Source of the DNA: Escherichia coli
GTDB lineage: Bacteria; Pseudomonadota; Gammaproteobacteria; Enterobacterales; Enterobacteriaceae
Direction: 5' to 3' (one strand)
NCBI GenBank assembly: GCA_032372955.1
Contig: GCA_032372955.1_4725.1
Length of the DNA stretch: 64,000 bases
The position numbers were made by a program, and so were the translations under genes. The notes below the pieces were generated by a model. It saw nothing but the letters and a program-made list of their open reading frames with translations, did no database searches and was not told where the DNA came from. Below are positions 3,586 to 60,501 of this stretch, in pieces (the first letter of the stretch is position 1; every line of letters starts with the position of its first letter).

Positions 3586-3619
3586 CCCTCCCTGCCTTAT
3601 GCAGGGAGGGTTTATGCCG
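3586..3619 (+). promoter_or_regulatory. GC-rich hairpin followed by TTTATGCCG (terminator plus putative late-promoter TATG motif)
   Basis: CCCTCCCTGC / GCAGGGAGGG stem then TTTATGC; member of recurring cassette. Confidence 0.45.
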
Positions 3620-3652
3620 CATGCAATCTTAAAATTGAAAACGAGGACAATC

Positions 3653-4450
3653 ATGAGTGTAAAACGTACTTCTCTGGGCTATCGTCGCATTGCGAGCCTG
3701 GCAACCCAAGAGGATATTATCTATCGTATCGAACACGATAAATTAGAATTTACCATGAACGACGCAGCCAATATCTGCGGTCGTTTAAACATTGAACGCG
3801 ATAGCAATAATGCGATGTATGTTGCCGCATTGTATTTTAATGGACGGTTGATTGAAACGAGTTTCAGCGTTGATCGCTTTGAGGATACCAGTAGCAGAGT
3901 GAAAACATTGATGGCGAACATGTTCGTCCGTACGTATTTACGTACACGTATTTCACGTTACGTTGGAAACGGTTTATCGGAAACAGAAGAGCATGGCTTA
4001 CGTCGCGGACTTTATAAATTGCTTTTAGAATTGCTGCCTACGCGGTACGGTATTACGGTTCCTGATGTGGATGATGTGTACTGGCGAGATACGTTGGACT
4101 GGATGCTGTATCAGATTTCCGAGACGACCTCCGACCTTCGTTATACCCGAAGCTTAAAAGGAGGAAGCTATGCCGTATACCGCAGCCTTCGTTATAATGA
4201 ACAGCAACATAAGGCGATGATAGTCACACGTCTTGTCTTCACGGTGAAAAGCGGATTAGGAGATACAGCTAACATTGAACCTTTCTCTGAGAAAAGCCAG
4301 TATACGACACATCTCATCGAACCCGTCGATTGTGTTACTGACGATCATACGCTCGATCGTTACGCACGACAGATCTGGCAGACGCTGACGTTACCGCATA
4401 TGGACATCGGTCTTCAGTCGTATACGCATCGTGATAGGAGAACACGTTAA
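3653..4450 (+). CDS. hypothetical protein
   Basis: ORF track frame; start moved to ATG 3653 downstream of hairpin, RBS GAGGA. Confidence 0.6.
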   Translation: MSVKRTSLGYRRIASLATQEDIIYRIEHDKLEFTMNDAANICGRLNIERDSNNAMYVAALYFNGRLIETSFSVDRFEDTSSRVKTLMANMFVRTYLRTRISRYVGNGLSETEEHGLRRGLYKLLLELLPTRYGITVPDVDDVYWRDTLDWMLYQISETTSDLRYTRSLKGGSYAVYRSLRYNEQQHKAMIVTRLVFTVKSGLGDTANIEPFSEKSQYTTHLIEPVDCVTDDHTLDRYARQIWQTLTLPHMDIGLQSYTHRDRRTR

Positions 4451-4458
4451 TCCAACAT

Positions 4459-4482
4459 TTTTCACGGCTATATTACTTAAGT
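4459..4482 (+). promoter_or_regulatory. putative early promoter TTTCACGGCTATATTACTTA
   Basis: Near-identical motif also at 27737 and 57151, related copy at 9736; contains TATATTAC core. Confidence 0.45.
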
Positions 4483-4569
4483 GATGTACAACATCAATCG
4501 ACTGTATAAGGCATATCACATTGTCCTTATATTGGAAATTAAATCCTAACGAAATCCGAGGATAGTAAA

Positions 4570-5034
4570 ATGACTTTAGCACAAGAAACCCAAATTCTGT
4601 TTATCCTGTCTCTCATCCTGGGCGCAGGTCTTATAATTTATTTAGCAGTAGCAGGTATGCGGTTACGTGAAGATGATAAACTTTATCAGATGACCGCCAA
4701 CTGGTTATTACGTCGTATCAACAAAGACTACGACAGCAGCTACTGTGAATTACTCGACAATCTGTCCAAAGACTGGATTCGTGCTTACGCTTACCCTGTT
4801 CGCCGTATGGCACAGCTGAGCAAGAAGTGGTTCAAAGCCAATCCGCGCACGACAATCAAACTCAACGGTATGGAACAAGCAAAGGTAATGACTTGGTTAC
4901 TTAACTTCGAACAGTATCCTGAAAATTGGAAAGTGGCCAAGATTCGTACAAACCGTTCCCTGGATGAAGTTATTCGTTTAGCGGCAGAGTTGCGCGGTCG
5001 TAATGTTAACGACGTTATCGCAGCTTTGGTTTAA
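4570..5034 (+). CDS. hypothetical membrane protein (N-terminal TM helix)
   Basis: ORF track; hydrophobic stretch FILSLILGAGLIIYLAVAG. Confidence 0.65.
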   Translation: MTLAQETQILFILSLILGAGLIIYLAVAGMRLREDDKLYQMTANWLLRRINKDYDSSYCELLDNLSKDWIRAYAYPVRRMAQLSKKWFKANPRTTIKLNGMEQAKVMTWLLNFEQYPENWKVAKIRTNRSLDEVIRLAAELRGRNVNDVIAALV

Positions 5035-5045
5035 GTATTTTTGCG

Positions 5046-5096
5046 GTCTCTCCCTACCTTCGGGTGGGGAGGGGCTGCCCATTCTTTTTTATTTTT
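5046..5096. terminator. rho-independent terminator (stem-loop plus T-tract)
   Basis: CTCTCCCTACC/GGTGGGGAGGGG stem followed by CATTCTTTTTTATTTTTG. Confidence 0.6.
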
Positions 5097-5152
5097 GTAA
5101 CTTTCTACGAATTTCCACCACCCTATGAAATGAAAAGCTTGAGGAGAACGGA

Positions 5153-5602
5153 ATGATCCATTTTGATGGTAATAGCAGCCAGCATTTTTCCTTTGAGGTC
5201 GAACAAACAAACAGTACCTTGGTCGGACGTTTCGGTGATGGTAACACACCGTTGTTTACCTACACGTACATGCTCAATAATGAACAACCGATGCGAATTA
5301 ACGCGACCAACTTCATGGCGGCGTTATGGGTGATCTACGGACTTAAAGTCGCCAACAGTAAATCGTACGCCTACAATAACTTTTTTCATGCTTGGTGGCA
5401 GCTTGAGTGTTATAATCGATTAAAGATTCCCGTACCTAAACATCCAGCAGAGTTGTCCGATATTGTTTATTTGGACTGTGGGTATATCGATATGCATACG
5501 CGAACATTTTACGCACCACGCACCAATGTATCCATGCCCGTCGAACTGGAGTTAGGGCATATGCCTAACTACGATAGATTGGTTGGAATGAATTACGCTT
5601 AA
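5153..5602 (+). CDS. hypothetical protein
   Basis: ORF track; RBS GAGGAG upstream. Confidence 0.65.
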   Translation: MIHFDGNSSQHFSFEVEQTNSTLVGRFGDGNTPLFTYTYMLNNEQPMRINATNFMAALWVIYGLKVANSKSYAYNNFFHAWWQLECYNRLKIPVPKHPAELSDIVYLDCGYIDMHTRTFYAPRTNVSMPVELELGHMPNYDRLVGMNYA

Positions 5603-5615
5603 AGAGGAGTTCCTC

Positions 5616-12995: not shown

Positions 12996-13018
12996 GGTCC
13001 CCTGTTGTAGGGGGGACC
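12996..13018 (+). terminator. GC-rich stem-loop
   Basis: GGTCCCC / GGGGACC inverted repeat 7 nt after stop. Confidence 0.4.
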
Positions 13019-14326: not shown

Positions 14327-14357
14327 TGTATTAAGTCATCGAACGACGGCATAAATG

Positions 14358-14386
14358 CCCTCCCTACGCTTTACGCTGTGGGAGGG
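14358..14386. terminator. bidirectional stem-loop between convergent genes
   Basis: CCCTCCC / GGGAGGG between plus-strand stop 14326 and minus-strand stop 14392. Confidence 0.45.
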
Positions 14387-14391
14387 TTATC

Positions 14392-14745
14392 TTAAGCGCT
14401 GTAGTGGATTGTGCGGTACTGTTGTTTTAATGTGTTGATTGCGCTTGTATCGACAATCTTCATGGTTAGAACATCGGCGGTGTATTCCGTAGGGTCGCGA
14501 TAACCATTGAGTCTCATGGTTATCCAGTGCATTGGTTCACTGCCCTCACCGAGCAGAACACGGCACAATCCATAAAAGTTACCATCGAATTCGTAGGCGC
14601 GTTCGGGTGGTATGTCTATCGTAGAGACCAGTCCGGCATTTTTGAAATATTCCAGATGCATCTCAACAACGTTCCTGAAATCAAGATCGTGGATGAGGTC
14701 ATCGGGGTTTGTCTTAAGAAAGTCGTTCAGGGGCGTGTTAGACAT
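14392..14745 (-). CDS. hypothetical acidic protein (reverse strand)
   Basis: ORF track; start set to second Met with RBS GAGG. Confidence 0.55.
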   Translation of the reverse strand: MSNTPLNDFLKTNPDDLIHDLDFRNVVEMHLEYFKNAGLVSTIDIPPERAYEFDGNFYGLCRVLLGEGSEPMHWITMRLNGYRDPTEYTADVLTMKIVDTSAINTLKQQYRTIHYSA

Positions 14746-17367: not shown

Positions 17368-17378
17368 TGCATATTACG

Positions 17379-17419
17379 CCTCCTCCTGCCCATGTGGTGG
17401 GAGGAGGATGTTTATGCTG
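17379..17419 (+). promoter_or_regulatory. GC-rich hairpin followed by TTTATGCTG
   Basis: CCTCCTCC / GGAGGAGG stem then ATGTTTATGCTG. Confidence 0.45.
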
Positions 17420-18229: not shown

Positions 18230-18243
18230 TAAACACGAATAAC

Positions 18244-18280
18244 CCTCCCTCTCCCATGCGGAGGTGGGAGGGAATTATGT
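18244..18280 (+). promoter_or_regulatory. GC-rich hairpin followed by AATTATGTCG and T-rich tract
   Basis: CCCTCCCTCTCC / GAGGTGGGAGGG stem. Confidence 0.45.
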
Positions 18281-18386
18281 CGTTGTTTTTATTTTCCGTT
18301 ATTTCTGACGGAAATAAAGCAATATATGCAAAGGCAACGTATATCCAACATGTCATCTATTTCTACGTAGAAGAGGAAATGAGATT

Positions 18387-22627: not shown

Positions 22628-22646
22628 GGGGCCTCGAAGCAGGCCC
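22628..22646 (+). terminator. short GC stem-loop
   Basis: GGGGCCT / AGGCCC inverted repeat. Confidence 0.3.
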
Positions 22647-22663
22647 TTATAACCGGAGCATGT

Positions 22664-23557
22664 ATGTCACAAGTAAGAGGCGTGAAACAAATCGCCAATT
22701 TAATGATGTTAAGTGGTGAGACACAGCAGGAACGTGAGCTGGTCTTCTTTGGTAAACTGGCTGAAGACGGTGTTGAACGTCTTCGTCAAGTCGCATCAAA
22801 AATCGAACATATGGTGCAACATCAATGGTTGTTTGATAACACAGCCGTTGGTGGTGTGAAAGGTCAGGTGCGCGCACGTGCGATACAGATCGATAACGAA
22901 GAACCGAAATACATCATGACTACGAAGGTGTATCGCGGTCCAGGTGATGCAACGGAAAGCGAAGTCGAAATTCCGGTCGAGATGTTTGACGCGATCGAAC
23001 GTATGGCTCCTGAAGGCCAAGCGAAAACACGTTACACCGTAGAAAGCGCTGATGGTCTGGCATGGGAAGTTGACGTCATCTATACACGAGACCACCAGGT
23101 TGTTGAGTGGACGAAGATCGATATTGAAATTCCGGCTGGAACTTATCTTCGTGAAAATCCGACGTTGCCTGAAGCGTTGAGTGATGTGTTTGTGCAGATG
23201 ATCGATCGTCCTCACGCAAAACGTACGGATGAAGAGAACGCTATTCTTGACGATCTGTTCAAGAACAAATTCTACATCAAGAACGATAAGGTTGTGGTGA
23301 GCAAACTTCCTGAAGGGTTTGAACGCTTTGTTGATCCTAAGGTCGTCATTGAAATGCTGATGCCTGCCATCGAACCTCTCGTAAATATGATTCCAGCGTT
23401 AAGCTACAACGAGAAGTATTTTGATTTCGATGAAGAAGGTCAGCTGAAAAGCGCTTTACAAGAACTCAAGCATGCCGCACTCAGTGTCTTACGTTTAAGT
23501 AAGAAGAACAACGAAGAGTGTGATTGCGACCAAGATAAGAATGGAGAAAATGAATGA
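22664..23557 (+). CDS. hypothetical protein, possibly CYTH-like (triphosphate tunnel) fold
   Basis: Alternating charged motifs ERE, RAR, EVEIP, EVDVI, DIEIP suggest CYTH-like strands; weak. Confidence 0.6.
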   Translation: MSQVRGVKQIANLMMLSGETQQERELVFFGKLAEDGVERLRQVASKIEHMVQHQWLFDNTAVGGVKGQVRARAIQIDNEEPKYIMTTKVYRGPGDATESEVEIPVEMFDAIERMAPEGQAKTRYTVESADGLAWEVDVIYTRDHQVVEWTKIDIEIPAGTYLRENPTLPEALSDVFVQMIDRPHAKRTDEENAILDDLFKNKFYIKNDKVVVSKLPEGFERFVDPKVVIEMLMPAIEPLVNMIPALSYNEKYFDFDEEGQLKSALQELKHAALSVLRLSKKNNEECDCDQDKNGENE

Positions 23558-23892
23558 ACGTACAACAAATCTGTTTAATCGATGATCAGTTCAGTGAAAT
23601 TAACGGTGAGCGTTACAATGTTGTAAGCTGGACGCTTTCGATGGTCCAGGCTGCTGAACAATTCCCGATGGACAAACACAGCCCTGAAGCGTTCCGCGAT
23701 GTCTATAAACAAACCCAGCTGGTTGACCGTAAACTACCCGAAGGTTACGACGACGAGAAACTACTGAACGATATTAAGCGTGCGTTCGCCTTACACATGC
23801 TAACCTTAACCGAAGACGATCCTTTAGAAATCCCTGACGAGTGGCTTATCTACGATATGGAAGCCTACTTCATGAAAGAACTCTGGTTCTAA
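23554..23892 (+). CDS. hypothetical protein
   Basis: ORF track; overlaps upstream stop. Confidence 0.6.
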   Translation: MNVQQICLIDDQFSEINGERYNVVSWTLSMVQAAEQFPMDKHSPEAFRDVYKQTQLVDRKLPEGYDDEKLLNDIKRAFALHMLTLTEDDPLEIPDEWLIYDMEAYFMKELWF

Positions 23893-23909
23893 ATTAAATT
23901 GACATAAAC

Positions 23910-23966
23910 CTTCCTCCCCGCCCGTTATGGGTAGGGAGGAAGATATGCTAACTATTTTTTTTTTTA
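23910..23966. terminator. bidirectional terminator (hairpin plus T12 tract)
   Basis: CTTCCTCCCC / GGGTAGGGAGGAAG stem then ACTATTTTTTTTTTT; lies between convergent genes. Confidence 0.55.
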
Positions 23967-25415
23967 CTCGGTGAAGTGTGGTTTATAACCAGCCTGCCAT
24001 GCGGCGGTCATGGCGTCGTAGTTGATGTGTGAAGTGCCTGCCGGGAATGTCCAACCACTCAGATCCTGATTGAACGCGAAGCACCCAGACAACATATTGT
24101 TTGCATTCTTAACAGACGAAACATCCCACGAACCGATCGGTTGGTTGAATGTAGCGCAACCGTAGAAGAGGTCCTTCATTGAAGTAATGTTGCGGGTGTT
24201 CCATTTGGTGATGTTCACGTCGTTAATAACGCTGCATCGCGTAAACATACCTTCTAACGATGTCCAGTATGCCGGGATATAATCGGGAACCTTAGTTAAA
24301 CTGTTCGCCGCAAGGAATGATGGGGCCTTAGGTAATCCGTTGTTCCAGTCAACGATTTCAGTGATGTTACCACCGGTGAAGCTTTGCTGTACCTCTGTAT
24401 CTTCAACATTGGTAGGGGTACCCGTAGCGACGATCGTACGTTCCGTAGTGTCCGCATAAGTGTGCCGATATTCATTATCGCCTGAGTCCTGCGTCGTCTT
24501 ATTCCCATCACCCCAATCGATATTGACATTTGTCCAACCATCTAATGACAATATAATGCTGCCGCCTTTTGTTTTAAGAACGTATTGGATTGGTTTAGGT
24601 GAAGCGTGACCAACAACCATAGCACCCTTAAGGCTACCGATAACCCAATCTTTCTTGGTGGTTACCAGTAACTCGGCGTCACCGTATGACCGCACCTCTA
24701 CTCTACGAGCGTCTTCGCTTCCGTTAATTGTCTGCATTGCTTGTTGCATTTGTTCGCTGGTAATATCACCATAACGAACCATGACGTTCAGGATATTCTG
24801 GAAGTACGCAGCGTCAAGGACACCTTCAGTTGTTTCGGCATTTCCGTTTTCGCCGATAACCGAGGTTGTTGCTAACAGTAACGAACCAGATGTGTCAGCT
24901 TCAACGCCATCCAGATAAACCAGATTCGTAAGATTGGTTTGCTTGATGATCGTAATCAAGCTCAACGTATCGTTAGCGATATTGAACTGAAGATTACCAG
25001 CCCAAACATAAGACGTGTTTGCAACCGGAACCGTAATGTCTTTAATACCGGTGTCTTCGAACGTAATCTGCTTATTCAGCTCGGATTCGAGGAAGTCGAC
25101 GGTTGTGTCGAATACCAATCCGTAACGTTCAGCGATCGTGTTGATGATATCCCTTACGGCGGTATCATTTTTAACGATAACCCGTAACGGGATCCCAGTG
25201 AAGTTTTTAGCGATGTCTCGACGGATATAGGTCAGGGACTGCTCGTTAAAGTAACGGCTAGCATCGTTCGGTTTGATCGTAACAACAACCGTTCCGGGCA
25301 CTTCGCTTACCGGTTCAGTTAGTTCAAATTTTACGTCGTCTAATGTCAGCTGTAAGCTGTTTTTGCTATTTACTAACGCGAGAAGTTCGTCTTTCCAGCT
25401 TTGTTTGAGTTTCAT
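23964..25415 (-). CDS. DUF285/BspA-type repeat protein (reverse strand), possible virion or host-interaction protein
   Basis: C-terminal repeats FYGCATFNQPIGSWDVSSV and GCFAFNQDLSGW. Confidence 0.55.
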   Translation of the reverse strand: MKLKQSWKDELLALVNSKNSLQLTLDDVKFELTEPVSEVPGTVVVTIKPNDASRYFNEQSLTYIRRDIAKNFTGIPLRVIVKNDTAVRDIINTIAERYGLVFDTTVDFLESELNKQITFEDTGIKDITVPVANTSYVWAGNLQFNIANDTLSLITIIKQTNLTNLVYLDGVEADTSGSLLLATTSVIGENGNAETTEGVLDAAYFQNILNVMVRYGDITSEQMQQAMQTINGSEDARRVEVRSYGDAELLVTTKKDWVIGSLKGAMVVGHASPKPIQYVLKTKGGSIILSLDGWTNVNIDWGDGNKTTQDSGDNEYRHTYADTTERTIVATGTPTNVEDTEVQQSFTGGNITEIVDWNNGLPKAPSFLAANSLTKVPDYIPAYWTSLEGMFTRCSVINDVNITKWNTRNITSMKDLFYGCATFNQPIGSWDVSSVKNANNMLSGCFAFNQDLSGWTFPAGTSHINYDAMTAAWQAGYKPHFTE

Positions 25416-40033: not shown

Positions 40034-40174
40034 ATGGCCTGGTCATACCCCTATCGTATTCTGATAGGTGTTAAAAATAAGAAAGGTCCCCGTAAAGGTA
40101 AATGGAGATACACCTGGTTATGCGGACAGATAGAACTAAAACCAAGGATCTTCTCTGCCTGGAGTAAAAAGTGA
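40034..40174 (+). CDS. small basic protein with KKGPRKGK motif (46 aa)
   Basis: ATG with RBS TAGGAG; not in ORF track (below length cutoff); motif shared with three other small ORFs. Confidence 0.4.
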   Translation: MAWSYPYRILIGVKNKKGPRKGKWRYTWLCGQIELKPRIFSAWSKK

Positions 40175-40377
40175 TGATTAATTCTCTACAGCGCCACATA
40201 CTAAATCATGTTATCAACGACATGATTGGTGTTCGTTTAGTCAAAGGAAAACACAAGAAAGGTTGCAATAAAGGAAAACGGTTCGTGGCGTATGTGGTAC
40301 CAACGACTGAACGAAGGATCGCAAATGCTGCGGTGGATTCTATCGCGAAAGCGATGCCGTGGCTTATGTTGGACTGA
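40171..40377 (+). CDS. small basic protein with KHKKGCNKGK motif
   Basis: ORF track. Confidence 0.5.
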   Translation: MMINSLQRHILNHVINDMIGVRLVKGKHKKGCNKGKRFVAYVVPTTERRIANAAVDSIAKAMPWLMLD

Positions 40378-40403
40378 CTTTTTAGAGGAAAGAGAGGTTA
40401 CGC

Positions 40404-40595
40404 ATGCAATGTCTCGAAGTGACAGAAGCAGGTACGCTAGAATATATCGACCCGATGTATTCATCCCGATTTATCGCCACTCGATATTTGGATCGTGTTT
40501 ATAACAAACGCGTTAAACGAGGCCCAGGTAAAGGCAGACAGAAGAAAGTAAGTATTTATAAATGCCATAAAGCGCCTAATCCGGTGTATTATTGA
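40404..40595 (+). CDS. small basic protein with KRGPGKGRQKK motif
   Basis: ORF track; RBS AGAGAGG upstream. Confidence 0.5.
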   Translation: MQCLEVTEAGTLEYIDPMYSSRFIATRYLDRVYNKRVKRGPGKGRQKKVSIYKCHKAPNPVYY

Positions 40596-40939
40596 AGATA
40601 GCGTTGAAGAGGATCTACCCTATGCTTAGCATCACTTATTTTCGTCGATGCTGGTATATTCATCAGTACCGCAAAAACAGGAATCAGATTATCGATATAA
40701 AGTTTCATATTGACTCTTTACTCAAACTAGAGAAGGTGAAAGAACAACCGTTGGTTGTCGTTCGGTTGAGGTCTTTATTAGAACGTTTACGTATAGCGTC
40801 GCAGGTGAATGAACAGCTTCATCAGGCGAATAAAGCGCGTGCGCCAAGGGTTGTACGGAAATGTTATCGTTCCGGATTTAACCATCGATTGAAAAGTATA
40901 CGTAACAGTTTAAAGCATATAACGGAGAATATGGCATGA
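40592..40939 (+). CDS. hypothetical basic protein
   Basis: ORF track; AT-rich segment. Confidence 0.5.
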   Translation: MKIALKRIYPMLSITYFRRCWYIHQYRKNRNQIIDIKFHIDSLLKLEKVKEQPLVVVRLRSLLERLRIASQVNEQLHQANKARAPRVVRKCYRSGFNHRLKSIRNSLKHITENMA

Positions 40940-41580
40940 AAGATATCGCGGAAACAAAAGAAGAGAAATACACCCAACTGAAGAAGAAACTGGAGAAACA
41001 AGGTTTTCTAGCGAAACGTTTAATCCGTGTTATGCGTTATAAATACAAATGCTATTTCGGTACGGAGCTATCGAACGGTGATGCGTTTGTTAACGAGTGT
41101 CGTCGGACAATATCTCGCATTAATGACTTACAAGCGCGTAATGATTGGTGGTACAAAGAATCGGAAAACTTCACTGATACCGACCGCCGTACCGTATCCC
41201 ACTTAGAAAAACAGTTGAAGGAGTTAATGGAAGACAGAGCCGACTTACAACGTCGAATCCATCAGCGATTTGATGAGTGGGAGAAGGGGGCTTTTATTAA
41301 CGGTGATGAGATACGTATCGATAACATCATTAGACGTCTTATCGCTAAAGATGATGAGGAAGACTTACCGTTACCGGACGATCACGATACCGCGAAACAG
41401 GTTCTCGAACAAGCGGTACGTTGCATGGGTGCTTTGCTCTCCCTGGGTCATATCGAACGCAAAAAGATCGTTCAATGTAAATTCGAAAAGCTTCTCGTTC
41501 AGTTCCACCGCAAGTTCTTTTATAGCACCGAAAAAGAAGTTGCTGTACAACTAATAGAAGGTATCAATGAAGTTAAATAG
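40936..41580 (+). CDS. hypothetical protein (coiled-coil-like)
   Basis: ORF track. Confidence 0.55.
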   Translation: MKDIAETKEEKYTQLKKKLEKQGFLAKRLIRVMRYKYKCYFGTELSNGDAFVNECRRTISRINDLQARNDWWYKESENFTDTDRRTVSHLEKQLKELMEDRADLQRRIHQRFDEWEKGAFINGDEIRIDNIIRRLIAKDDEEDLPLPDDHDTAKQVLEQAVRCMGALLSLGHIERKKIVQCKFEKLLVQFHRKFFYSTEKEVAVQLIEGINEVK

Positions 41581-41935
41581 AACTGTTCGGAGTATACAGT
41601 CATTTTGGTATCGATATTGGTTTAATCGTAATTTACGTGACTTCGTTCGGCTTATCCGTTATGTGAAGCTCATGATAAATTGTCGTGAGTTAAATAGAGA
41701 GTTGGGGATAGGTAGTGCGAGGAAATATACGTACGATACAGACCCGTTTATCGAGTACTGCAATTCGTATATAAGAGATATCGTGGTTCTGATGAAATCG
41801 AGCCATGAGTTGTTTATGTATTGCGATTCTTGCTACAAGTCCTTTCTCGGACGCCGTGTTCGTGCAAATCGAATAAGAAATGCGATCTCTATGTTACATT
41901 GGCGATTTTACTATTTTCCAGACCCCGATAAATAA
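41567..41935 (+). CDS. hypothetical protein
   Basis: ORF track. Confidence 0.5.
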   Translation: MKLNRTVRSIQSFWYRYWFNRNLRDFVRLIRYVKLMINCRELNRELGIGSARKYTYDTDPFIEYCNSYIRDIVVLMKSSHELFMYCDSCYKSFLGRRVRANRIRNAISMLHWRFYYFPDPDK

Positions 41936-41940
41936 ACAAC

Positions 41941-42273
41941 GTGTATATGAATCAGACAGCTATAATTGATATTTATAACTATCGTAAATACACATCCATG
42001 CTCGATGCTGCGACTTCGCTGTTAGAGCACAAGTTACGCGAATGCAACGTACAGACCGCTACAGAAGAAGTTCTGGAAATCGCGCAGTTGTTACTTGATC
42101 GTTTAAAAGAACTTCGAATTTACGTGGCGAGCATGTATGGGAATGGTCCCGATGCTGTAAGTATTGCTTACAACAAACCAAGATTGATGGTGGAGAAGAT
42201 TATCGAGCAAACCGGTAACATCGACAATGAAATCAGCGCCTTTATAAGCGGCGTCAATACGTTAAAACTTTAA
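41941..42273 (+). CDS. hypothetical protein
   Basis: ORF track. Confidence 0.5.
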   Translation: MYMNQTAIIDIYNYRKYTSMLDAATSLLEHKLRECNVQTATEEVLEIAQLLLDRLKELRIYVASMYGNGPDAVSIAYNKPRLMVEKIIEQTGNIDNEISAFISGVNTLKL

Positions 42274-42278
42274 GAGAG

Positions 42279-42587
42279 ATGATAAAAATGAACGAAAACA
42301 ATTGTGAACTGGTTCCAGAAGAAAGGTTGGTTGCGATTCGTGATTACTTCTTGGCTGATGAAGAGAACAAACCATTCTTCGTCTTTTCGGATAATAAACA
42401 TCAAGCAACCTGTGAACTCGCTGCAGCCGAGGGTATGCGTGATGCGTTAGTGTATCGATTGGAAGCGAAACGATCTGTTGTATCAGACACGACAGAGATC
42501 GATAATGCAATCAAGGCGGTCGATCGTCGATATGACGAGTTACTTACCGAGTATGAGAAAGGGTCGCAAACGGTAATTCTTCACTAA
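42279..42587 (+). CDS. hypothetical protein
   Basis: ORF track. Confidence 0.55.
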   Translation: MIKMNENNCELVPEERLVAIRDYFLADEENKPFFVFSDNKHQATCELAAAEGMRDALVYRLEAKRSVVSDTTEIDNAIKAVDRRYDELLTEYEKGSQTVILH

Positions 42588-42617
42588 TCCGCCCCATCCA
42601 TTTGCACGGAGACGCAG

Positions 42618-42899
42618 ATGTTCAACAGTTCGATGGTGTATTACGGTAGTATCGTTCAGGTATTGGTACCTTTCATCGATGATCGTACCTGTTTAGCAGC
42701 AGACGCACGGTATATTCAACGCTGGGTAAAACTTGGGCGATTAACACGAAAACATTTACAGCATGCGATGACTTCAACCCATGCTGCGATTCATCTTATC
42801 GACCCTAACTTTCGCGACGGTAAAAGACACATTCACCTTTATCGTGAAAGTTATGTCCGCTGGTTAGAAAACGCATTAAAGGATAAAGAACATGAGTAA
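42618..42899 (+). CDS. hypothetical protein
   Basis: ORF track. Confidence 0.55.
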   Translation: MFNSSMVYYGSIVQVLVPFIDDRTCLAADARYIQRWVKLGRLTRKHLQHAMTSTHAAIHLIDPNFRDGKRHIHLYRESYVRWLENALKDKEHE

Positions 42900-43377
42900 C
42901 ACAGTTAAACTTAATGAAAACAATTTTTCAAAACTGGACGATTTTATCGAAGAATATATCGAGAAAAAGCAATGGGCTATTATCAGTGTCGCTCCTGATG
43001 AGGGAAGCGACGAGCCTGGCTTTATGTATACTGTTGGTCTAACCGAACACGGAATGCCGGAAATCTTCGTATCCGGTTACTGCCCTGCCCTTGGTTCAGC
43101 AATCAACAAACTGGGTAACTTCATGGTGAAGGCAAAGACCATCCCGTTAGGCGCGTTCGATGGTAATCTGATTTTGAAGGGTACGGGTGAAACCTTGCGT
43201 CTCGACGTACGCGAAATTGAGGATATTGAATCCTTCAACGAAGTGTATGCGATAGCGGCTTTCGCTCGATACGGTAAAAAAGTTGCAGGTATTCAGCTTG
43301 TTTGGCCTGACACCAGCAATACGTTACCACATGAAGGTGGTTACGAATCATGCTGCTGTCCGCAGATCCTGCTTTAA
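42892..43377 (+). CDS. hypothetical protein
   Basis: ORF track. Confidence 0.6.
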   Translation: MSNTVKLNENNFSKLDDFIEEYIEKKQWAIISVAPDEGSDEPGFMYTVGLTEHGMPEIFVSGYCPALGSAINKLGNFMVKAKTIPLGAFDGNLILKGTGETLRLDVREIEDIESFNEVYAIAAFARYGKKVAGIQLVWPDTSNTLPHEGGYESCCCPQILL

Positions 43378-43415
43378 TCTTAATACCAATAATTAAATTG
43401 TTTATAGGAGTTTTT

Positions 43416-43604
43416 GTGAAATCGACCATCAACCGCACCGATTTTCATCCCGATCGTATTGCGGAGACCTTTGCTCGTATGGATAATAACACGTTCGCCA
43501 TGTTGTTCAACAGCGGATTTGATTCTACCCACGAGACCAGTCGTTCTACCGGTGTGATTATCGATGCGGAATGTGTCCATGTTAAGGAAACAAACGCGGA
43601 ATAA
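43416..43604 (+). CDS. hypothetical small protein
   Basis: Track ORF 43350-43604 trimmed to GTG 43416 with RBS AGGAG. Confidence 0.35.
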   Translation: MKSTINRTDFHPDRIAETFARMDNNTFAMLFNSGFDSTHETSRSTGVIIDAECVHVKETNAE

Positions 43605-43610
43605 GACGCA

Positions 43611-43985
43611 ATGTACGTTATTATCGATGATGTTGAAGGACGACAGCTAACGCCAGTTCAATCGTTACGATTGCGTAATGCCGCATTGATGTACGCTGTG
43701 TTATGGTGGGACTGTAAAACACGCTTACCTAGCGATGCAAAATCGATGCGGCGCTATTCAGAAGCATTAGTGTCGTGTGAACATGATGAGATTTTTCAAC
43801 GACTCTTTGACCGGCTATCAGGTTATCAAGCAATCATTCGGAAGGGTTTGTTTGTCTCTATTGAATGGTTCGGTACTGAGTTACGGTTAATCGTTGACCG
43901 CAAGGGTATGACATTACGCCCTAACGCATTCGAGTCGACACGAGCGATTGCTTGGTGGGACGAGGAAGGTAATCGTCTCTGGTGA
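43611..43985 (+). CDS. hypothetical protein
   Basis: ORF track. Confidence 0.6.
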   Translation: MYVIIDDVEGRQLTPVQSLRLRNAALMYAVLWWDCKTRLPSDAKSMRRYSEALVSCEHDEIFQRLFDRLSGYQAIIRKGLFVSIEWFGTELRLIVDRKGMTLRPNAFESTRAIAWWDEEGNRLW

Positions 43986-43991
43986 TAAGCA

Positions 43992-44010
43992 CCCCGTCTT
44001 AATGACGGGG
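43992..44010 (+). terminator. short GC stem-loop
   Basis: CCCCGTC TTAAT GACGGGG. Confidence 0.35.
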
Positions 44011-44062
44011 GATACGCTTAAGTAAAGGTATGAGATCAGACAACAACCGAACGAGGTGAAAC

Positions 44063-44179
44063 ATGGTGAATAATGACGAGCTTACGGAAATAAAATCTTG
44101 GGTTGCTAAAGCGCTGCTTGCGTATAGCGCCGTCGGCGTACTGTTTGCCGTAATTGGCATGGTAGGTATGCTACGATGA
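44063..44179 (+). CDS. small membrane peptide (38 aa, one TM helix)
   Basis: ATG with RBS GAGGTGAAAC; hydrophobic ALLAYSAVGVLFAVIGMVGML; stop overlaps next start. Confidence 0.4.
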   Translation: MVNNDELTEIKSWVAKALLAYSAVGVLFAVIGMVGMLR

Positions 44180-44442
44180 GCATCGAGGATGACTTTTTAC
44201 GGAACGCACTTGACTTTTATTCTAAACCATTAACACCCGGTGGGTTGGAATTGGGTGTGGTCGATCCTGATAAATTGCATCCAATTGCTAAATGGTTGAA
44301 TCAACATCGAGAAGGGCTGTATTCCGTTGACCAACCGGAACTGGTGGCACGTTGGCATATTAAGAAAAGCGGTCTCAATATGTCGTTACAAGCGCGTGCG
44401 AACAAAGACCATATTGCCCTATCGATCATGGGTACTTTTTAA
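44176..44442 (+). CDS. hypothetical protein
   Basis: ORF track. Confidence 0.6.
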   Translation: MSIEDDFLRNALDFYSKPLTPGGLELGVVDPDKLHPIAKWLNQHREGLYSVDQPELVARWHIKKSGLNMSLQARANKDHIALSIMGTF

Positions 44443-44456
44443 CGAGGATAATTTAC

Positions 44457-45434
44457 ATGGCTTCTGTTGGCCCAATCGATAAGACACGCGATGCGGTAAA
44501 GGCGTTGCTCGAAAGAATTTATTTTGAGCTTGCGAATGCCGAACATCCAAGCGTGAGTCTTTTCGATGATAAACTCACAGCGATTAATAACGTTCATCCA
44601 ATGCTGTATCAGGATCTCCTTACGTCGTGGAAACCGATGGGTGTTTTCGCGAACGCTTTTTCAGATACCGTCGTAGCCAGCGGCTTTGAAAAACCGAAGC
44701 TACCTTTTGTCTATGAGCCGTCGGTCGATCCAAGACGGGAGCGTCTGGGTGTTTTAACGCACGCTCTGATTGACAGTATTGGTTATTATCTTTCCTCTGA
44801 ATGGACAGCTAAATATACCGAGCTGTTAGACGAATACGAGCTGTGGCGTAATCAGATCTTAACGGATGCGGAGAAGAAAGCATACGCGATCGCGTTGGCG
44901 GAGAAAACCCGCGGGGACGTTGGTCGCTTAATCCACGATTTTTACGCGGTTTTGAAACCAACCTACTACGAAACAAAACGTCAACTGACCTGGGAAGAAG
45001 CACAGGCGTTGATGCAGAGCGCAGAAACAGCGGATGATATTTCGGGTATAATCCACGATTACTGTATGTCAAGAATCCTGCTGGATAAAGGCAATCAGAA
45101 ATACGTTCGTGAGGTTCCGCTTCCCAATAACGCGATGGGGATCGCAAACGAGATTTTCGAGTTCCTGAACGAATGGAATCCGCCGTTACTTGCGATTACG
45201 TATATCTGCGATGATATTCTTACCGAGGATCTGTTCCTTCCATTGTTAGGTGAAGCGTCGCTGCGACGTTATTCCCAGACGTTCAAGAACAGCGCAACGA
45301 TGGCATCGACCGTACCGGTTAGTTTACCACGTCGTCGTAAAATGCTTACGGTATCCGCTGGCAAGATTAACCTCTTAGTGTTGTATTATGCTGTAAGAAA
45401 CGGCCTGCCAACATTAATTTTCAGGAAAAAGTAA
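44457..45434 (+). CDS. hypothetical protein
   Basis: ORF track; RBS ACGAGGATAA upstream. Confidence 0.65.
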   Translation: MASVGPIDKTRDAVKALLERIYFELANAEHPSVSLFDDKLTAINNVHPMLYQDLLTSWKPMGVFANAFSDTVVASGFEKPKLPFVYEPSVDPRRERLGVLTHALIDSIGYYLSSEWTAKYTELLDEYELWRNQILTDAEKKAYAIALAEKTRGDVGRLIHDFYAVLKPTYYETKRQLTWEEAQALMQSAETADDISGIIHDYCMSRILLDKGNQKYVREVPLPNNAMGIANEIFEFLNEWNPPLLAITYICDDILTEDLFLPLLGEASLRRYSQTFKNSATMASTVPVSLPRRRKMLTVSAGKINLLVLYYAVRNGLPTLIFRKK

Positions 45435-45851
45435 ATGGCTGAAGCGACTGTACAAAACCCCCTTTCATTGATTCAGCAAATAAACATACAGATTTCTCCA
45501 AAATGCTGTTCTCTTGAACTTGCATTATCCCACGTCGAAAGCTGGGTAACCTTTCGCCGCACGGTGCATCCGCGTTTCCCGGTAAATATCAGTCCTGTCA
45601 TCGTGGTGGCATTAGAAAACGAAGACCTTACTCAAGACATGTGGCAACGCATCCGTGGACGCATACCGCAATACGTAAATGTGATGGGTGTTCTGTTAGT
45701 AAGTGACACCGAAGCATTCGAAAGCCATCCGTTGTGTTACGCCGATGTGGTGGTTACGGATAACCCGATGATGCTTGAACGTATGCGTGCTGTGCTGACT
45801 AATCCGGTTCGAACGGAAATACTCATCGACATTAAACAGGATGCTTCTTAA
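45435..45851 (+). CDS. hypothetical protein
   Basis: ORF track. Confidence 0.6.
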   Translation: MAEATVQNPLSLIQQINIQISPKCCSLELALSHVESWVTFRRTVHPRFPVNISPVIVVALENEDLTQDMWQRIRGRIPQYVNVMGVLLVSDTEAFESHPLCYADVVVTDNPMMLERMRAVLTNPVRTEILIDIKQDAS

Positions 45852-46161
45852 CAGTTTGGGTGATAACATGCGTTATTGGAAACTTTCAGCTTATCAAATT
45901 GCGTTATTGGGTATCGACACCAAAGAGAAAGAATTGTTGCACGGTGAACTCGACACCGCTTACCTTTCAGAAAACAACATGGTTGTATGTAAATTTGTTG
46001 GGTTAACGACGCGACGTAATACGGTACATGAAACCTATGCGTTGAAGGGTAAAGGCATGCAGGAAGTTGCTGCCGTGATTCGTACCGGTATCGTGGTACC
46101 GCCAGGTGTAAGTGATAATCTTGATGAGGTGTTACATGGAACTCGTAAAGCAACCCGTTAA
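45841..46161 (+). CDS. hypothetical protein
   Basis: ORF track; alternative start ATG 45868. Confidence 0.5.
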   Translation: MLLNSLGDNMRYWKLSAYQIALLGIDTKEKELLHGELDTAYLSENNMVVCKFVGLTTRRNTVHETYALKGKGMQEVAAVIRTGIVVPPGVSDNLDEVLHGTRKATR

Positions 46162-46744
46162 TGCGTGGACGATCATGCCGGATGAAGCTGTTCGCTATGG
46201 CTTCCTGAAGAAGCACGCGCCGAAGCTCATCGATGGTACCATCGGACCGGAACAGGATTTGTTGTATGCCGTGCTGTTTGATGACTATCGTGCGATGGCG
46301 GTTTATGGTGAGTCAGGAAAAGCACACGTCGTAAGCATCGAACGTTACGTGTTTAATGAGCCGGGTGTTAAGGAACAGCTTGATGCCATCATGATGAACA
46401 CGAAACCCGTACCTGAACATATCAAGCTTCAGTTCCTCGAGATGCTGAATCCAGATGAACGGACGGTGCGGCTTATTCGTAACGATCCTGCCACCCAGGA
46501 ACTCACGGAAGTATTACTGGACCTGAAACTGCATGTCGCCCTCGAACGTGCTGAAGGGGGTAAGGTTAATACCTGTATCCGTCAATTCTGTAAATCCCGT
46601 GAAGCGAAGGTTAAACACCATCAAACACGGAATATCCTGAAAGCGATTCGTTCCGTCGCGTTACCTGAAATTAAAATGAAGGAAGTGCTGTCGTTATACG
46701 AAGCTTATATGAACGACGAAGTCGAATGCGTCGTGAAGTCGTGA
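46136..46744 (+). CDS. hypothetical protein
   Basis: ORF track frame; ATG 46136 with RBS GAGG. Confidence 0.55.
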   Translation: MELVKQPVNAWTIMPDEAVRYGFLKKHAPKLIDGTIGPEQDLLYAVLFDDYRAMAVYGESGKAHVVSIERYVFNEPGVKEQLDAIMMNTKPVPEHIKLQFLEMLNPDERTVRLIRNDPATQELTEVLLDLKLHVALERAEGGKVNTCIRQFCKSREAKVKHHQTRNILKAIRSVALPEIKMKEVLSLYEAYMNDEVECVVKS

Positions 46745-46761
46745 CGAAATAAAAGCATATT

Positions 46762-46807
46762 GCCTGTGTCCCTCCCATCATGGGCGGGCACGGGCGTTAT
46801 GCTGATG
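46762..46807 (+). promoter_or_regulatory. GC-rich hairpin followed by GTTATGCTGATG
   Basis: GCCTGTGTCCCTCCC / GGGCGGGCACGGGC imperfect stem. Confidence 0.45.
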
Positions 46808-46851
46808 TACATTTTGACAATTTTTTGGTTTCGTATGGAGGAAACGACAAC

Positions 46852-49902
<3,051 letters not shown>

Positions 49903-53609: not shown

Positions 53610-53637
53610 CCCTCCCGGCATGGGAGGGCTTATGCCG
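53610..53637 (+). promoter_or_regulatory. GC-rich hairpin followed by CTTATGCCG
   Basis: CCCTCCC GGCAT GGGAGGG. Confidence 0.5.
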
Positions 53638-57560: not shown

Positions 57561-57563
57561 TCA

Positions 57564-57586
57564 GGCCCCCCTAAATGGGGGGGCCT
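57564..57586 (+). terminator. GC stem-loop followed by TTTATACC
   Basis: AGGCCCCCC TAAAT GGGGGGGCCT. Confidence 0.45.
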
Positions 57587-57620
57587 TTATACCGATTTTA
57601 TTTCAACGAGGATCTTTATC

Positions 57621-58658: not shown

Positions 58659-58676
58659 ACCAACACTGTTTGATAA

Positions 58677-58716
58677 GTGCCGCCTACATATGGGCGGCAC
58701 TGCTCTGGTCTTTATG
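58677..58716 (+). promoter_or_regulatory. GC stem-loop followed by TTTATGTTG
   Basis: GTGCCGCC TACATATG GGCGGCAC then TGCTCTGGTCTTTATG. Confidence 0.4.
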
Positions 58717-58740
58717 TTGTACAACAGTTGTCAAGGAGGT

Positions 58741-58821
58741 ATGTGGGTACGTGCGTTGTTACTCGCATTCGCGTTAGTGATGTTTCTAAAATTTGAATCA
58801 TCGCTTTATCAGAAAAAGTAA
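58741..58821 (+). CDS. tiny hydrophobic peptide (26 aa)
   Basis: ATG immediately after strong RBS CAAGGAGGT; sequence MWVRALLLAFALVMFLKFESSLYQKK; below track cutoff. Confidence 0.3.
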   Translation: MWVRALLLAFALVMFLKFESSLYQKK

Positions 58822-58831
58822 GAAGGAGTTC

Positions 58832-59026
58832 ATGATGGGACATATGCTACTACGGGGATTAACGGGGATGGTTCTAGCATGGATGGTCATTGGGTTTTGT
58901 GGGATGATGTTCTTCATGGTCGATGAACCTGCTGCCCGAATTAACGTAGGGTTATGGTTCGTCTTCTTGATGATAGCGGTATTCGTTATCGTTACCTTGT
59001 TAAGGAATGTAGGAAAGCGCAAATAA
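58832..59026 (+). CDS. small two-TM membrane protein, holin-like
   Basis: Two hydrophobic helices and charged C-terminus RNVGKRK; RBS AAGAAGGAG. Confidence 0.45.
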   Translation: MMGHMLLRGLTGMVLAWMVIGFCGMMFFMVDEPAARINVGLWFVFLMIAVFVIVTLLRNVGKRK

Positions 59027-59042
59027 ACGAACGGGAAAAGCC

Positions 59043-59414
59043 ATGGGTTTAAAGACATACGCAAAAATCTATTTCATTTTCACTTTTATAATGATTGGGA
59101 TTTCTGCAGCGAATATCGATTTTGAAACAACGACGGAACGCGTTTATTACGTTATCCGAACCATCGTTTGTGTTATAGGGCAGCTTCCCCTTTTGTATAT
59201 TTGTACATGGTCGACGCGTAACATCAGACGGTTTGTCGTGTATGGGTTCGCGTACGTTCTTTTTATGCTTGTTATGTGGCAGGTCGATGCTCGACTGAGC
59301 GATATCGCAAATATCATCGCAACGGCGATTCTCAGTGCAACAAGCTGGTGTTTATTTTTACCGATGTGTCGACGTGTCGAGGATGAAGGTTATGGGTATC
59401 ATGGAGAATCTTAA
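59043..59414 (+). CDS. multi-pass membrane protein
   Basis: Four hydrophobic segments. Confidence 0.55.
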   Translation: MGLKTYAKIYFIFTFIMIGISAANIDFETTTERVYYVIRTIVCVIGQLPLLYICTWSTRNIRRFVVYGFAYVLFMLVMWQVDARLSDIANIIATAILSATSWCLFLPMCRRVEDEGYGYHGES

Positions 59415-59703
59415 GTTAACTAATCGCATCCTTGTCGATAGAGAAGTTGTTTTACGCGAGATACGAAGCGTGATGGCGATCTTTAATCTGGATCATCGAT
59501 CTGCCATTATGTCTATTCTCTTGAATAAAACAACCTTTAATATCCGGGAGATACGTCGTATTCACAACGGTATGGAACGACGGCATAAATTAAGCGACGA
59601 ACTCGTACATTGCGAGTTTATACCGCATCAAGTCTATCGACGTATTTATCGTGATCCATGCCTTCGGGATAAATACAACCTATGGCTCGACGGTAGAGGT
59701 TAA
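59392..59703 (+). CDS. hypothetical basic protein
   Basis: Track ORF trimmed to ATG 59392 with RBS GAGGATGAAGG. Confidence 0.45.
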   Translation: MGIMENLKLTNRILVDREVVLREIRSVMAIFNLDHRSAIMSILLNKTTFNIREIRRIHNGMERRHKLSDELVHCEFIPHQVYRRIYRDPCLRDKYNLWLDGRG

Positions 59704-59955
59704 CATCTTTGAGAAACTATATGAATTCAAACGATGTACACCTTTACCGCGTTGGATGCGGGAAATGGGTTCTGTTATCCAACGTTATGTTTATTGCCAA
59801 ACCAGAGGAGACCGTAATTTCAGTACCGTTTATTTCTGTCGTGGATGTCGGGCAAACATCTGACGCTAACCTGCTGCCCGCTGAATAGAACAACCCGATG
59901 ACGGGATGCGTTATCAAGACGCCAGTGGACAGCACCTTATCGTGAGGTTATTAAG

Positions 59956-60453
59956 ATGCAAGGTATTTTACACACGTTGATTTTAGGGCTTGTTATGTTG
60001 CTTATCACACCGTTCAGTCAAGCATCGGTGAACGCAGGACCTAGAATCGATTGCCGGAAAGAGATCGTCGCATGCGCTGTGTATATGGAAGCCAGAGGCG
60101 AATCTGTAAAAGGGCAATACTCCGTGGCGTTTTTAATACATAATCGATCTATGGACTACCGATTCCCTACGAACGTCAAAGACGTCGTACTGCAAAGAGG
60201 TCAATTCCCCTGGACAAAACAAAGGCGTATTGTCATACGCGATCACGCTGCTTTTGAGCGAGCAAGAGCAATAGCACGAGAGGTCGCAACATTACGTTAC
60301 ACTGACATTGCGGCTTACCATAAAGCCGACCCAACACGAGGAGCCGTATTCTTTAACGCGAAACATCTTCGCCCTAAACATTTCAGAAAACATGCTACCA
60401 ATATCACCGTGGTAGACAGCCACATTTTCTTTGGTAAACGACGTCACACGTAA
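59956..60453 (+). CDS. SleB/CwlJ-type cell-wall hydrolase with N-terminal signal or signal-anchor, candidate endolysin
   Basis: VYMEARGESVKGQYSVAFLIHNRS matches Hydrolase_2 core; hydrophobic N-terminus HTLILGLVMLLITPFSQA. Confidence 0.6.
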   Translation: MQGILHTLILGLVMLLITPFSQASVNAGPRIDCRKEIVACAVYMEARGESVKGQYSVAFLIHNRSMDYRFPTNVKDVVLQRGQFPWTKQRRIVIRDHAAFERARAIAREVATLRYTDIAAYHKADPTRGAVFFNAKHLRPKHFRKHATNITVVDSHIFFGKRRHT

Positions 60454-60467
60454 AACAAATCCGTATG

Positions 60468-60501
60468 CCCTTCCTGCGTAATGCAGGAAGGGTTTATGCT
60501 G
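60468..60501 (+). promoter_or_regulatory. GC-rich hairpin followed by TTTATGCTG
   Basis: CCCTTCCTGC GTAAT GCAGGAAGGG then TTTATGCTG. Confidence 0.5.

Follow-up and report, generated by a model that had tools for sequence, protein, structure and literature searches.

What does an RNA polymerase (RNAP) do when it meets, just past the end of a gene, a GC-rich hairpin followed almost at once by TTATG: does it stop, does it start again, or both? The question is raised by a stretch of 64,000 nucleotides (one strand of contig GCA_032372955.1_4725.1, assembly GCA_032372955.1, deposited as Escherichia coli), hereafter the window, in which such a hairpin-TTATG cassette recurs between genes. Judging by its alignments, the window is a close relative of Escherichia phage vB_EcoM_Goslar (Goslar), which belongs to the nucleus-forming jumbo phages of the family Chimalliviridae: Goslar is the only GenBank phage matching window positions 28000-40000 (megablast, 94% identity), and the whole window aligns to Goslar 171232→106967, on the reverse strand, in six blocks of 92-98% identity (local blastn). 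We consider it very probable that the cassette is a factor-independent, non-canonical intrinsic transcription terminator of the Chimalliviridae, made of a hairpin followed by UUAU/G, and not primarily a promoter. Its recurrence, its enrichment, its conservation across the family and its linkage to upstream gene ends are the grounds found in this analysis; by analogy, RNA 3' ends at the motif and terminator activity in the relatives phiKZ and 201phi2-1 point the same way.

The sequence-only reading of the window had singled out nine intergenic sites, and at all nine there is indeed a GC-rich stem-loop, its 5' arm rich in C and its 3' arm rich in G, after which (T)TTATG follows within 0-3 nt. 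TTATGC(T/C)G is present at seven of the nine, the site at 35996 carrying TTATGTTCG and that at 18244, as had been noted, AATTATGTCG; the hairpin of the latter actually begins at 18243. Unbiased scans of the window (for perfect palindromes, by TTAT-anchored folding and by a hairpin census) recover all nine sites together with about eight more, on both strands, giving ~17 cassettes in total; the additional ones stand at 257, 22629, 57563 and 58676 on the + strand and, read on the - strand, at 14358-14386, 23908-23944, 25483-25508 and 27632-27660. When a cassette is strictly defined, as TATG placed 0-4 nt past the last 6 bp of a GC stem, the window contains 12 of them, against 1.05±1.07 (maximum 4) in 100 dinucleotide-preserving shuffles, and the use of TTAT instead of TATG as the core yields 15 against 1.37±1.15. 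The 8-mer TTATGCYG occurs eight times on the + strand and five times on the - strand, with ~2 expected per strand; the excess is wholly hairpin-linked, as the four hairpin-less copies (45386+, 62074-, 59588-, 38111-) correspond to chance level. Arms of the CCCTCC/GGAGGG type occur in 12 of the ~17 cassettes, and nine hairpin-linked sites have TTATGCTG or TTATGCCG as their tail, others TTATGTCG, TTATGTTCG or TTATACCG. TATG lies on the sense side of ~12 cassettes, TATA in three, and TATC on the + side of 14347-14396 and at 27620-27660. All of the window cassettes are also present in Goslar; Rfam covariance models gave no match at gathering score across the whole window.

An element of this kind has been described in relatives. 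According to the phiKZ study by ONT-cappable-seq (Putzeys et al., 2024, microLife, PMC10914365), the motif 5'-BCCYCCCCHWWDGGGRRGGBYTTATKYYGT-3' stands at 61 mapped RNA 3' ends, and 133 termination regions were located in a landscape of overlapping transcription units. In 201phi2-1, motif A (and an A/B combination) is a stem-loop that, in the authors' words, strongly resembles the phiKZ motif (PMC11512511); the likeness to our cassette rests on that description, the motif sequence being given in figures. Eight motif-bearing terminators of 201phi2-1 were placed in a two-fluorophore reporter, where six of the eight were equal to or better than the lambda T0 control, and elongated stems gave stronger termination, the activity being shown in vivo with the two-reporter construct; these assays were run with the host RNAP in Pseudomonas, not with the phage RNAPs (PMC11512511). 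The sequence-only reading had argued that most sites were not classical intrinsic terminators; the inference from there to a promoter in place of a terminator does not hold, since the equivalent motif marks mapped phiKZ transcript ends (PMC10914365), and the similar 201phi2-1 terminators are active in the reporter (PMC11512511).

The window consensus (C-rich arm, loop, GGGAGGG, N0-3, TTATGCYG) fits the phiKZ motif in its C-rich and G-rich arms, its TTAT tail and its position 3' of genes. Both share a C-rich 5' arm, a short loop and a G-rich 3' arm, then a 0-2 nt spacer, TTAT and G/T-Y-Y-G-T; both lie just 3' of genes, are bidirectional between convergent genes, and belong to chimalliviruses with two multisubunit RNAPs. 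They differ in their bearers, a Goslarvirus on E. coli as against a Phikzvirus on Pseudomonas, in the window stems, more varied and in many cases longer, reaching 14 bp, and in the base after TTAT, which in the window is mainly G (~12 G, 3 A, 2 C). By sequence comparison, thus, the window cassette is a Goslar-type copy of the known phiKZ-like conserved terminator motif, the kind being known and the instance in this lineage new. Several of the cassette hairpins had independently been labelled putative terminators by the Goslar depositors.

Gene context tells a signal for the gene that ends from a signal for the gene that begins. The whole Goslar genome was assembled with its 245 curated coding sequences, and all 108 intergenic hairpins with a folding free energy (dG) ≤ -11 were taken, their flanks being ignored in the selection. 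Each hairpin has two sides, one per strand, and each side was classed by whether a same-strand gene ends upstream (U), whether a same-strand gene starts downstream (D) and whether TATG lies within 10 nt of the stem. TATG is found on 19/77 sides with both U and D, on 12/48 with U only (convergent junctions), on 0/14 with D only (divergent junctions) and on 3/77 with neither. It depends, therefore, on an upstream gene end (31/125 sides with one against 3/91 without, p=7e-6), and, given such an end, it is independent of a downstream start (25% against 25%, p=1); the outcome stands at dG ≤ -15 and ≤ -18. In Goslar, the spacing between stop codon and hairpin is tight (median 14 nt) and the spacing between hairpin and the following annotated start broad (median 80 nt); in the window, hairpins begin 1-33 nt past the stop codon. 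Moreover, the convergent window junctions 14347-14396 and 23899-23952 carry cassettes with no gene beyond to drive, the former with a full TTATGCCG on its - side and the latter with TATG on both sides. The tie of TATG to upstream ends and not to downstream starts, together with these convergent junctions, fits a terminator and not a dedicated promoter, so a primary function of the motif as a promoter is not borne out. A comparison of sense and antisense RNA stability and of G·U asymmetry in the hairpins, aimed at RNA-level function on the coding strand, gave no difference (19 vs 13 cassettes, mean dG -20.36 vs -20.38, p=0.38-0.59), and is uninformative because the stems are near-perfect palindromes.

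The cassette is spread well beyond Goslar. The exact pattern CCCTCCC-N3-9-GGGAGGG-N0-3-TTATG matches at least 120 stretches in IMG/VR; among the matches listed, nearly all lie in contigs of 220-325 kb, several per contig, and many hairpins match on both strands, as CATAA-hairpin-TTATG. The positions after TTATG, left unspecified by the pattern, show among the matches listed (171 unique instances) Y in 84%, Y in 89%, G in 62% and T in 61%, a bias that reproduces the TTATKYYGT of phiKZ independently. When hairpins unselected by the pattern are taken at the same loci, the commonest 4-mer found 0-4 nt past the stem is TATG (162/449 sides), with TTAT on 93 and CTAT on 56, so that the conserved core is TATG and not U-richness.

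That core gives rise to an alternative, unlikely in our estimate, in which the cassette would be a bifunctional terminator-initiator: the hairpin would end the upstream transcript, and the abutting TATG would start the downstream mRNA (5'-GCYG...) by the non-virion RNAP (nvRNAP), producing insulated but restarted units along co-directional arrays. This adds the promoter reading first offered for the window onto termination. The late promoter of the phiKZ nvRNAP, T(-3)ATG(+1), is said to have been described by Ceyssens in 2014. Late transcripts begin at its G and all four bases of 5'-T(-3)ATG(+1)-3' are required (Yakunina, 2015, PMC4666361), while the structure shows the beta-like subunit gp123 gripping non-template T-3, A-2, T-1 and G+1 sequence-specifically (Chen, 2026, PMC12809450). 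The identification of TATG as this late-promoter element in the sequence-only reading was hence correct; the step from "not a terminator" to "promoter" was not. Within the published work reached by our literature search, no statement was found that terminator tail and promoter core share TATG.

Several observations favour a restart at the cassette. It holds exactly the 4-mer of the phiKZ initiator, on the non-template strand for the downstream gene and followed by a short 5' untranslated region with a Shine-Dalgarno (SD) sequence. TATG prevails past the hairpins even in CTATG variants, which lose a U and keep TATG, and the window copy at 18275 (AATTATG) corresponds to AACTATG in Goslar, a T→C change that again preserves it. 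Seven window cassettes lie 13-38 nt from the next SD and ATG, with no space for another promoter. Only four copies of a strong early-promoter-like motif, ttttCACGGCTATATTACttaNGTGA, occur in the 64 kb (4469, 9750, 27749 and 57162, + strand), so that downstream genes need either read-through or restart. In Goslar, the YYG extension of the tail is commoner at co-directional than at convergent junctions (13/19 vs 2/12, p=0.009), a count on which it bears that the convergent flanks often overlap the stop codon of the opposing gene. A preprint on Goslar RNA-seq (10.1101/2023.09.20.558163) draws, in a figure whose detail is not legible, a separate transcription start site for nvRNAP beta'(1) at most 91 nt 5' of its ATG, and this 91-nt interval contains the cassette at 257-288.

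On the other hand, a restart would call for TATG to go with downstream genes, and the Goslar context shows it indifferent to them and absent from the divergent junctions, where promoters must exist. The full TTATGCCG at the convergent junction 14347-14396 points into the antisense of a gene, and the YYG trend is reversed in the jumbo contigs of IMG/VR (13/32 co-directional vs 58/86 convergent, p=0.011). Late promoters of phiKZ have no conserved upstream element and stand ahead of late structural genes, and p119L, the best studied of them, has no upstream hairpin; the genes 3' of the window cassettes are by the Goslar annotation mostly hypothetical or concerned with replication or nucleotide metabolism, which would set them apart from late structural genes. 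Unlike those promoters, the cassette TATG tracks upstream gene ends and bears a YYG(T) extension, whereas the hairpin-less TATG candidates that lie 5' of many Goslar structural genes, in divergent regions, carry no GCYG. Three window cassettes have TATA and two TATC in place of TATG. Lastly, the phiKZ study by ONT-cappable-seq treats its promoter motifs apart from its terminator motifs and, in its available part, notes no coincidence of the two (PMC10914365).

At the four window sites of the early-promoter-like motif, a long conserved motif, ttaatNCAnnatttttCACGGCTATATTACttaNGTGA, is found (the positions given being the start of TATATTAC). A scan of 183 kb of Goslar shows ten copies of the TATATTAC core, with the extended motif in 8/10, one of them upstream of chmA. 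From its analogy to the AT-rich phiKZ early promoter, ttaatNCAnnatttttCACGGCTATATTACttaNGTGA looks like the early (virion RNAP) promoter of the lineage.

Returning to the terminator that we favour, the way in which we infer it to act in this phage, including its exact point of release and its pause logic, is as follows. A stable hairpin, C-rich in its 5' arm and G-rich in its 3' arm, would form in the nascent RNA, typically beginning 1-30 nt past the stop codon, and a short conserved tail, (U)UAU-G-Y-Y-G(U), would take the place of a long U-tract. Once the polymerase reaches U|G, only 4-5 weak rU/rA pairs would remain in the RNA:DNA hybrid. Multisubunit RNAPs pause at an elemental consensus, G(-10)Y(-1)G(+1), and U|G would be such a pyrimidine(-1)/G(+1) step, with G's ~10 nt upstream. 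The hairpin would then strip the transcript at about UUAU, and the GC-rich GYYG downstream may slow forward translocation; as many units read alike on both strands, they would act as bidirectional terminators at convergent gene ends. The arrangement resembles a canonical Rho-independent terminator in having a GC-rich hairpin directly past the gene and then a weak A/U-rich hybrid, and departs from it in its fixed UUAUGYYG tail, with 4-5 U in place of a 7-9-nt U-tract, and in its strong C-first/G-second polarity. In sequence terms it may also be likened to elemental pauses and to class II terminators of T7 RNAP (ATCTGTT), where a short conserved sequence at or past the release point helps to stop the polymerase. 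Termination is probably partial, since several downstream genes lie only 13-38 nt past a cassette, with no room for another promoter; such leakiness is in line with the overlapping transcription units reported for phiKZ (PMC10914365).

A refinement of the terminator reading, quite unlikely in our view, would let TATG itself replace the U-tract as the pause element: the promoter pocket of the beta-like subunit of the nvRNAP would capture TATG during elongation and stall the enzyme as the hairpin forms. It is TATG and not U-richness that is conserved past the hairpins across the family, and in Goslar this TATG is linked to upstream gene ends; gp123 binds the splayed non-template T-3, A-2, T-1 and G+1 sequence-specifically (PMC12809450), and a TATG-dependent pause would speak to a puzzle of the phiKZ field, that TATG by itself is too little sequence to specify a promoter. 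The gp123 pocket, however, is described as incomplete in the transcribing complex (PMC12809450), the 201phi2-1 terminators work with the host RNAP, which has no such pocket (PMC11512511), and early units of the virion RNAP carry the same cassettes, as where the early-promoter motif at 27749 is followed by the cassette at 29560.

Several findings weigh against the cassette being an intrinsic terminator. The terminator activity of the window copies is carried over by analogy from phiKZ and 201phi2-1. Their tail is not U-rich by classical criteria: as the sequence-only reading had remarked, most sites lack a T-tract, and in 28000-47999 a scan for consensus terminators, requiring at least 5 T in 8, picks up 1/4 cassettes, total terminator-like hits in this segment not being above shuffles either (23 vs 18.1±4.1). 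One hairpin-TTAT unit, at 27620-27660 (- strand), lies in a divergent region where a minus-strand helicase gene starts, and has no obvious upstream transcript to end. In IMG/VR loci classified by open reading frames (ORFs), TATG flanks 28-36% of sides that lack an upstream same-strand ORF; these classes are noisy, the loci were chosen around symmetric cassettes, and the set is too noisy to confirm the Goslar context result. Between window and Goslar, the 7-nt core and the flanks diverge equally (3.8% vs 3.8%), a comparison that is uninformative because the two genomes are too close. Finally, the 5' arm is C-rich in 31/35 Goslar cassettes, and this polarity, the TATG and the YYGT all exceed what a generic hairpin terminator needs, a hint of some extra recognition.

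In a further reading, the hairpin would serve as a sequence-specific RNA or DNA signal with a role other than ending transcription: a 3'-end tag for mRNA stability or export (from the phage nucleus or the early-infection vesicle, EPI), a palindrome that binds a protein, or a hairpin promoter like those of the N4 virion RNAP. The strong polarity, the near-identical hairpin copies at many places in Goslar and the reuse of CCCTCCC/GGGAGGG throughout the family would suit a recognised signal, and nucleus-forming phages must export every mRNA. We regard this as very unlikely. Both the sequence and the length of the stems differ freely from site to site, with pairing kept, enhanced crosslinking and immunoprecipitation (eCLIP) of ChmC found no motif and peaks near start codons, and no binding factor is known; a stabilising 3' hairpin, for its part, is compatible with a terminator and usually coincides with one. 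N4-type promoters have short stems of 5-7 bp with 3-nt loops, on the template strand, and the cassette hairpins are unlike them, so that an N4-type hairpin promoter is not supported. A REP-like (repetitive extragenic palindromic) mobile repeat was considered and is not supported either.

The pattern of change between window and Goslar bears on the hairpin as a structure. Across 15 cassettes, stems diverge by 2.3% and loops by 17.2%, with the core and flanks both at the figure given above, and low divergence in stems with high divergence in loops is what is expected if structure matters. In two hairpins the loop of one phage is the exact reverse complement of the loop in the other, at 3596-3600 (CTTAT/ATAAG) and 62809-62815 (CTAAAAA/TTTTTAG); these inversions, with the loop divergence of 17%, suggest palindrome-mediated loop flipping.

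Taken along the window, the cassettes vary considerably in detail. The first (257-288, +) follows the chmA stop and has a G-first hairpin at 257-280 (GGGAGGGAGG/CCTCCCTCCC), then TTATACGT; it is identical in Goslar, and an RNAP beta' ORF starts downstream of it at 323. At 3586-3619 (+), a hairpin (3586-3610) starts 15 nt past the stop at 3570 and leads into TTTATGCCG; for the gene beyond, the true start is likely ATG 3653. The bidirectional cassette of the convergent junction 14347-14396 has its hairpin at 14358-14386, with catTTATGCCG on the - side and TTATCTTAAG on the + side, and is flanked by homologues of gp173 (+) and gp172 (-), in the orientation of the Goslar annotation. In the cassette at 17379-17419 (+), a spacer ATG separates the hairpin (17379-17407) from TTTATGCTG, and the next gene starts at 17486; at 18243-18282 (+), the hairpin (18243-18272) is followed by AATTATGTCG, the Goslar counterpart being AACTATGTCG, with TATG kept. 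A variant at 22629-22655 (+) pairs GGGCCT with AGGCCC ahead of TTATAACCG, 13 nt 5' of ATG 22664. The second bidirectional cassette, at the convergent junction 23899-23952 between ORFs 23554-23892 (+) and 23964-25415 (-), has its hairpin at 23908-23944, TTATGTCAA on the - side and, on the + side, aTATGCTAA followed by a T-run.

Two cassettes are read on the - strand. That at 25475-25508 lies between two minus-strand genes and consists of an imperfect hairpin followed by TTATGCTG; its Goslar copy, annotated there as a terminator, has a perfect 11-bp stem but TTCATGCTG, with CATG instead of the lost TATG. The atypical site at 27620-27660 carries the hairpin CTCCTCCCC/GGGGAGGAG (within 27632-27660) and tttTTATCATAC, with no TATG. 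The remaining cassettes are on the + strand. At 29560-29587, 9 nt past the stop at 29550, ACCCTCCC-ttcg-GGGAGGGT precedes TTATGCTG, and the next ATG is at 29617. At 35987-36036, the hairpin 35996-36027 is followed by TTATGTTCG and has an antisense mirror, aaTATGCTG, with the next gene starting at 36050; likewise, at 46753-46804, the hairpin 46762-46795 is followed by gTTATGCTG and mirrored in antisense by aaTATGCTT, the next gene starting at 46852. Between these two, the cassette at 38291-38320 (AGCCTCCC-gtaat-GGGAGGCT, then TTTATGCTG) is a "putative terminator" in the Goslar annotation. The cassette at 53610-53637 starts 5 nt past the stop at 53604 and has CCCTCCC-ggcat-GGGAGGG and cTTATGCCG, with ATG 53654 standing 20 nt after it. 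A variant at 57563-57594 (AGGCCCCCC/GGGGGGCCT, then TTATACCG) lies 30 nt 5' of ATG 57621, and a looser one at 58676-58719 leaves a 10-nt gap between its hairpin (58676-58701) and TTTATGTTG. The last, at 60468-60501, follows the endolysin homologue and consists of CCCTTCCTGC/GCAGGAAGGG and TTTATGCTG.

Antisense TATGC is also present at three co-directional cassettes (35987-35995, 46753-46761 and 17369-17376, - strand), in the form GCATATT-hairpin-TTATGC, the TATG of the 17379 site being at 17373; transcription in antisense could be stopped, or started, by these three symmetric units. Goslar has at least eight near-identical copies of one hairpin, CCCTCCTCCTTCCCTTACGGGTTGGAGGAGGG, loop included, dispersed over its genome (hairpin starts 4149, 15778, 27741, 49776, 61009, 93440 and 224384; TTAT positions 48140 and 134584), and its window counterpart is 35996-36027. 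Their likeness suggests duplication or gene conversion, or else very tight sequence selection.

Other hairpins coexist with the cassettes. A second class of post-stop hairpins (37052-37077, 37654-37677 and 39674-39693, also 12996-13018 and 43992-44010), mostly with the G-rich arm first, has neither TTAT nor TATG after the stem, the tails being TTACTAC, AATTTG and AATACG. In Goslar, the TTAT/TATG tail is rarer on G-first than on C-first hairpins (4/19 vs 36/73, p=0.04). A classical intrinsic terminator, with a 13-bp stem and then a long T-run, is found at 62796-62850 (+), before the tail-gene region.

The ATG of the motif also misleads gene calling. The sequence-only reading had attributed false upstream starts at 3599, 17408, 36017 and 46780 to it, and was right in substance: they come from ATG or TTG in the loop, 3' arm or spacer of the cassette, and in-frame starts with an SD lie downstream of them, at 3653, 17486, 36050 and 46852 (Goslar gene lengths compared). 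A genuine start codon at the motif ATG, with GGAGG as SD, was considered and rejected, as it is in frame at some sites only, the spacing is 4 nt, and a better SD and ATG lie downstream. In the Goslar annotation, gp183 (window 3614) begins at the motif ATG, with an in-frame, SD-preceded ATG at 3653; gp167 (31 aa; window 18265) starts inside the hairpin; and gp145 (window 35973-36200) is placed on the opposite strand across the hairpin 35996-36027, the + strand there holding an SD-preceded ORF (36050-36349). These three are probably mis-annotations caused by the cassette.

As for the setting of the cassettes, the Goslar region matching the window comprises, by annotation, the 3' end of chmA (the nuclear-shell gene, chimallin), several RNAP subunit genes, helicases, NAD-ligase, thymidylate synthase, endolysin and the start of a tail gene. 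Nearly all genes are on the + strand of the window, with the exception of the homologues of gp160, gp161 and gp172. The window stretch 34286-35001 has no alignment to Goslar, and 36416-37079 is an insertion of ~660 bp relative to it, holding ORF 36435-37037 (200 aa, no Pfam match). Two group-I-intron-like matches, at 1545-1881 and 1996-2323 (+), score 30 and 44 bits, under the Rfam gathering score of 50; they stand after the RNAP beta' ORF 323-1672, and 1563-1932 has no counterpart in Goslar. The HNH homing-endonuclease ORF gp186, which adjoins the single annotated intron of Goslar, is missing from the window. Sigma-70-type promoter-like matches are strongly depleted in 28000-47999 (15 vs 39.1±6.8 in shuffles), as would fit a genome that is independent of the host RNAP or avoids it.

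For the Chimalliviridae, the cassette provides an annotation rule for the ends of transcription units, namely a hairpin with (T)TATGYYG(T) some 1-30 nt past the stop codon, and it exposes the start-codon errors that it itself induces. Apart from the possible part played by its TATG, it is a regulatory element to be expected in this phage family. Pseudomonas phages and E. coli phages alike have TATG as the conserved core of their terminator tail, and the nvRNAP uses this very 4-mer as its start signal, which raises the question of whether TATG serves to terminate or pause, to re-initiate, or to do both. We put forward, tentatively and as the less probable case, that a phage RNAP may read the terminator TATG with its own promoter pocket, either for a pause-triggered termination that dispenses with a U-tract or to terminate and restart at the G; if true, this would tie the conserved terminator of phiKZ-like phages to their minimal TATG promoter, itself unexplained.

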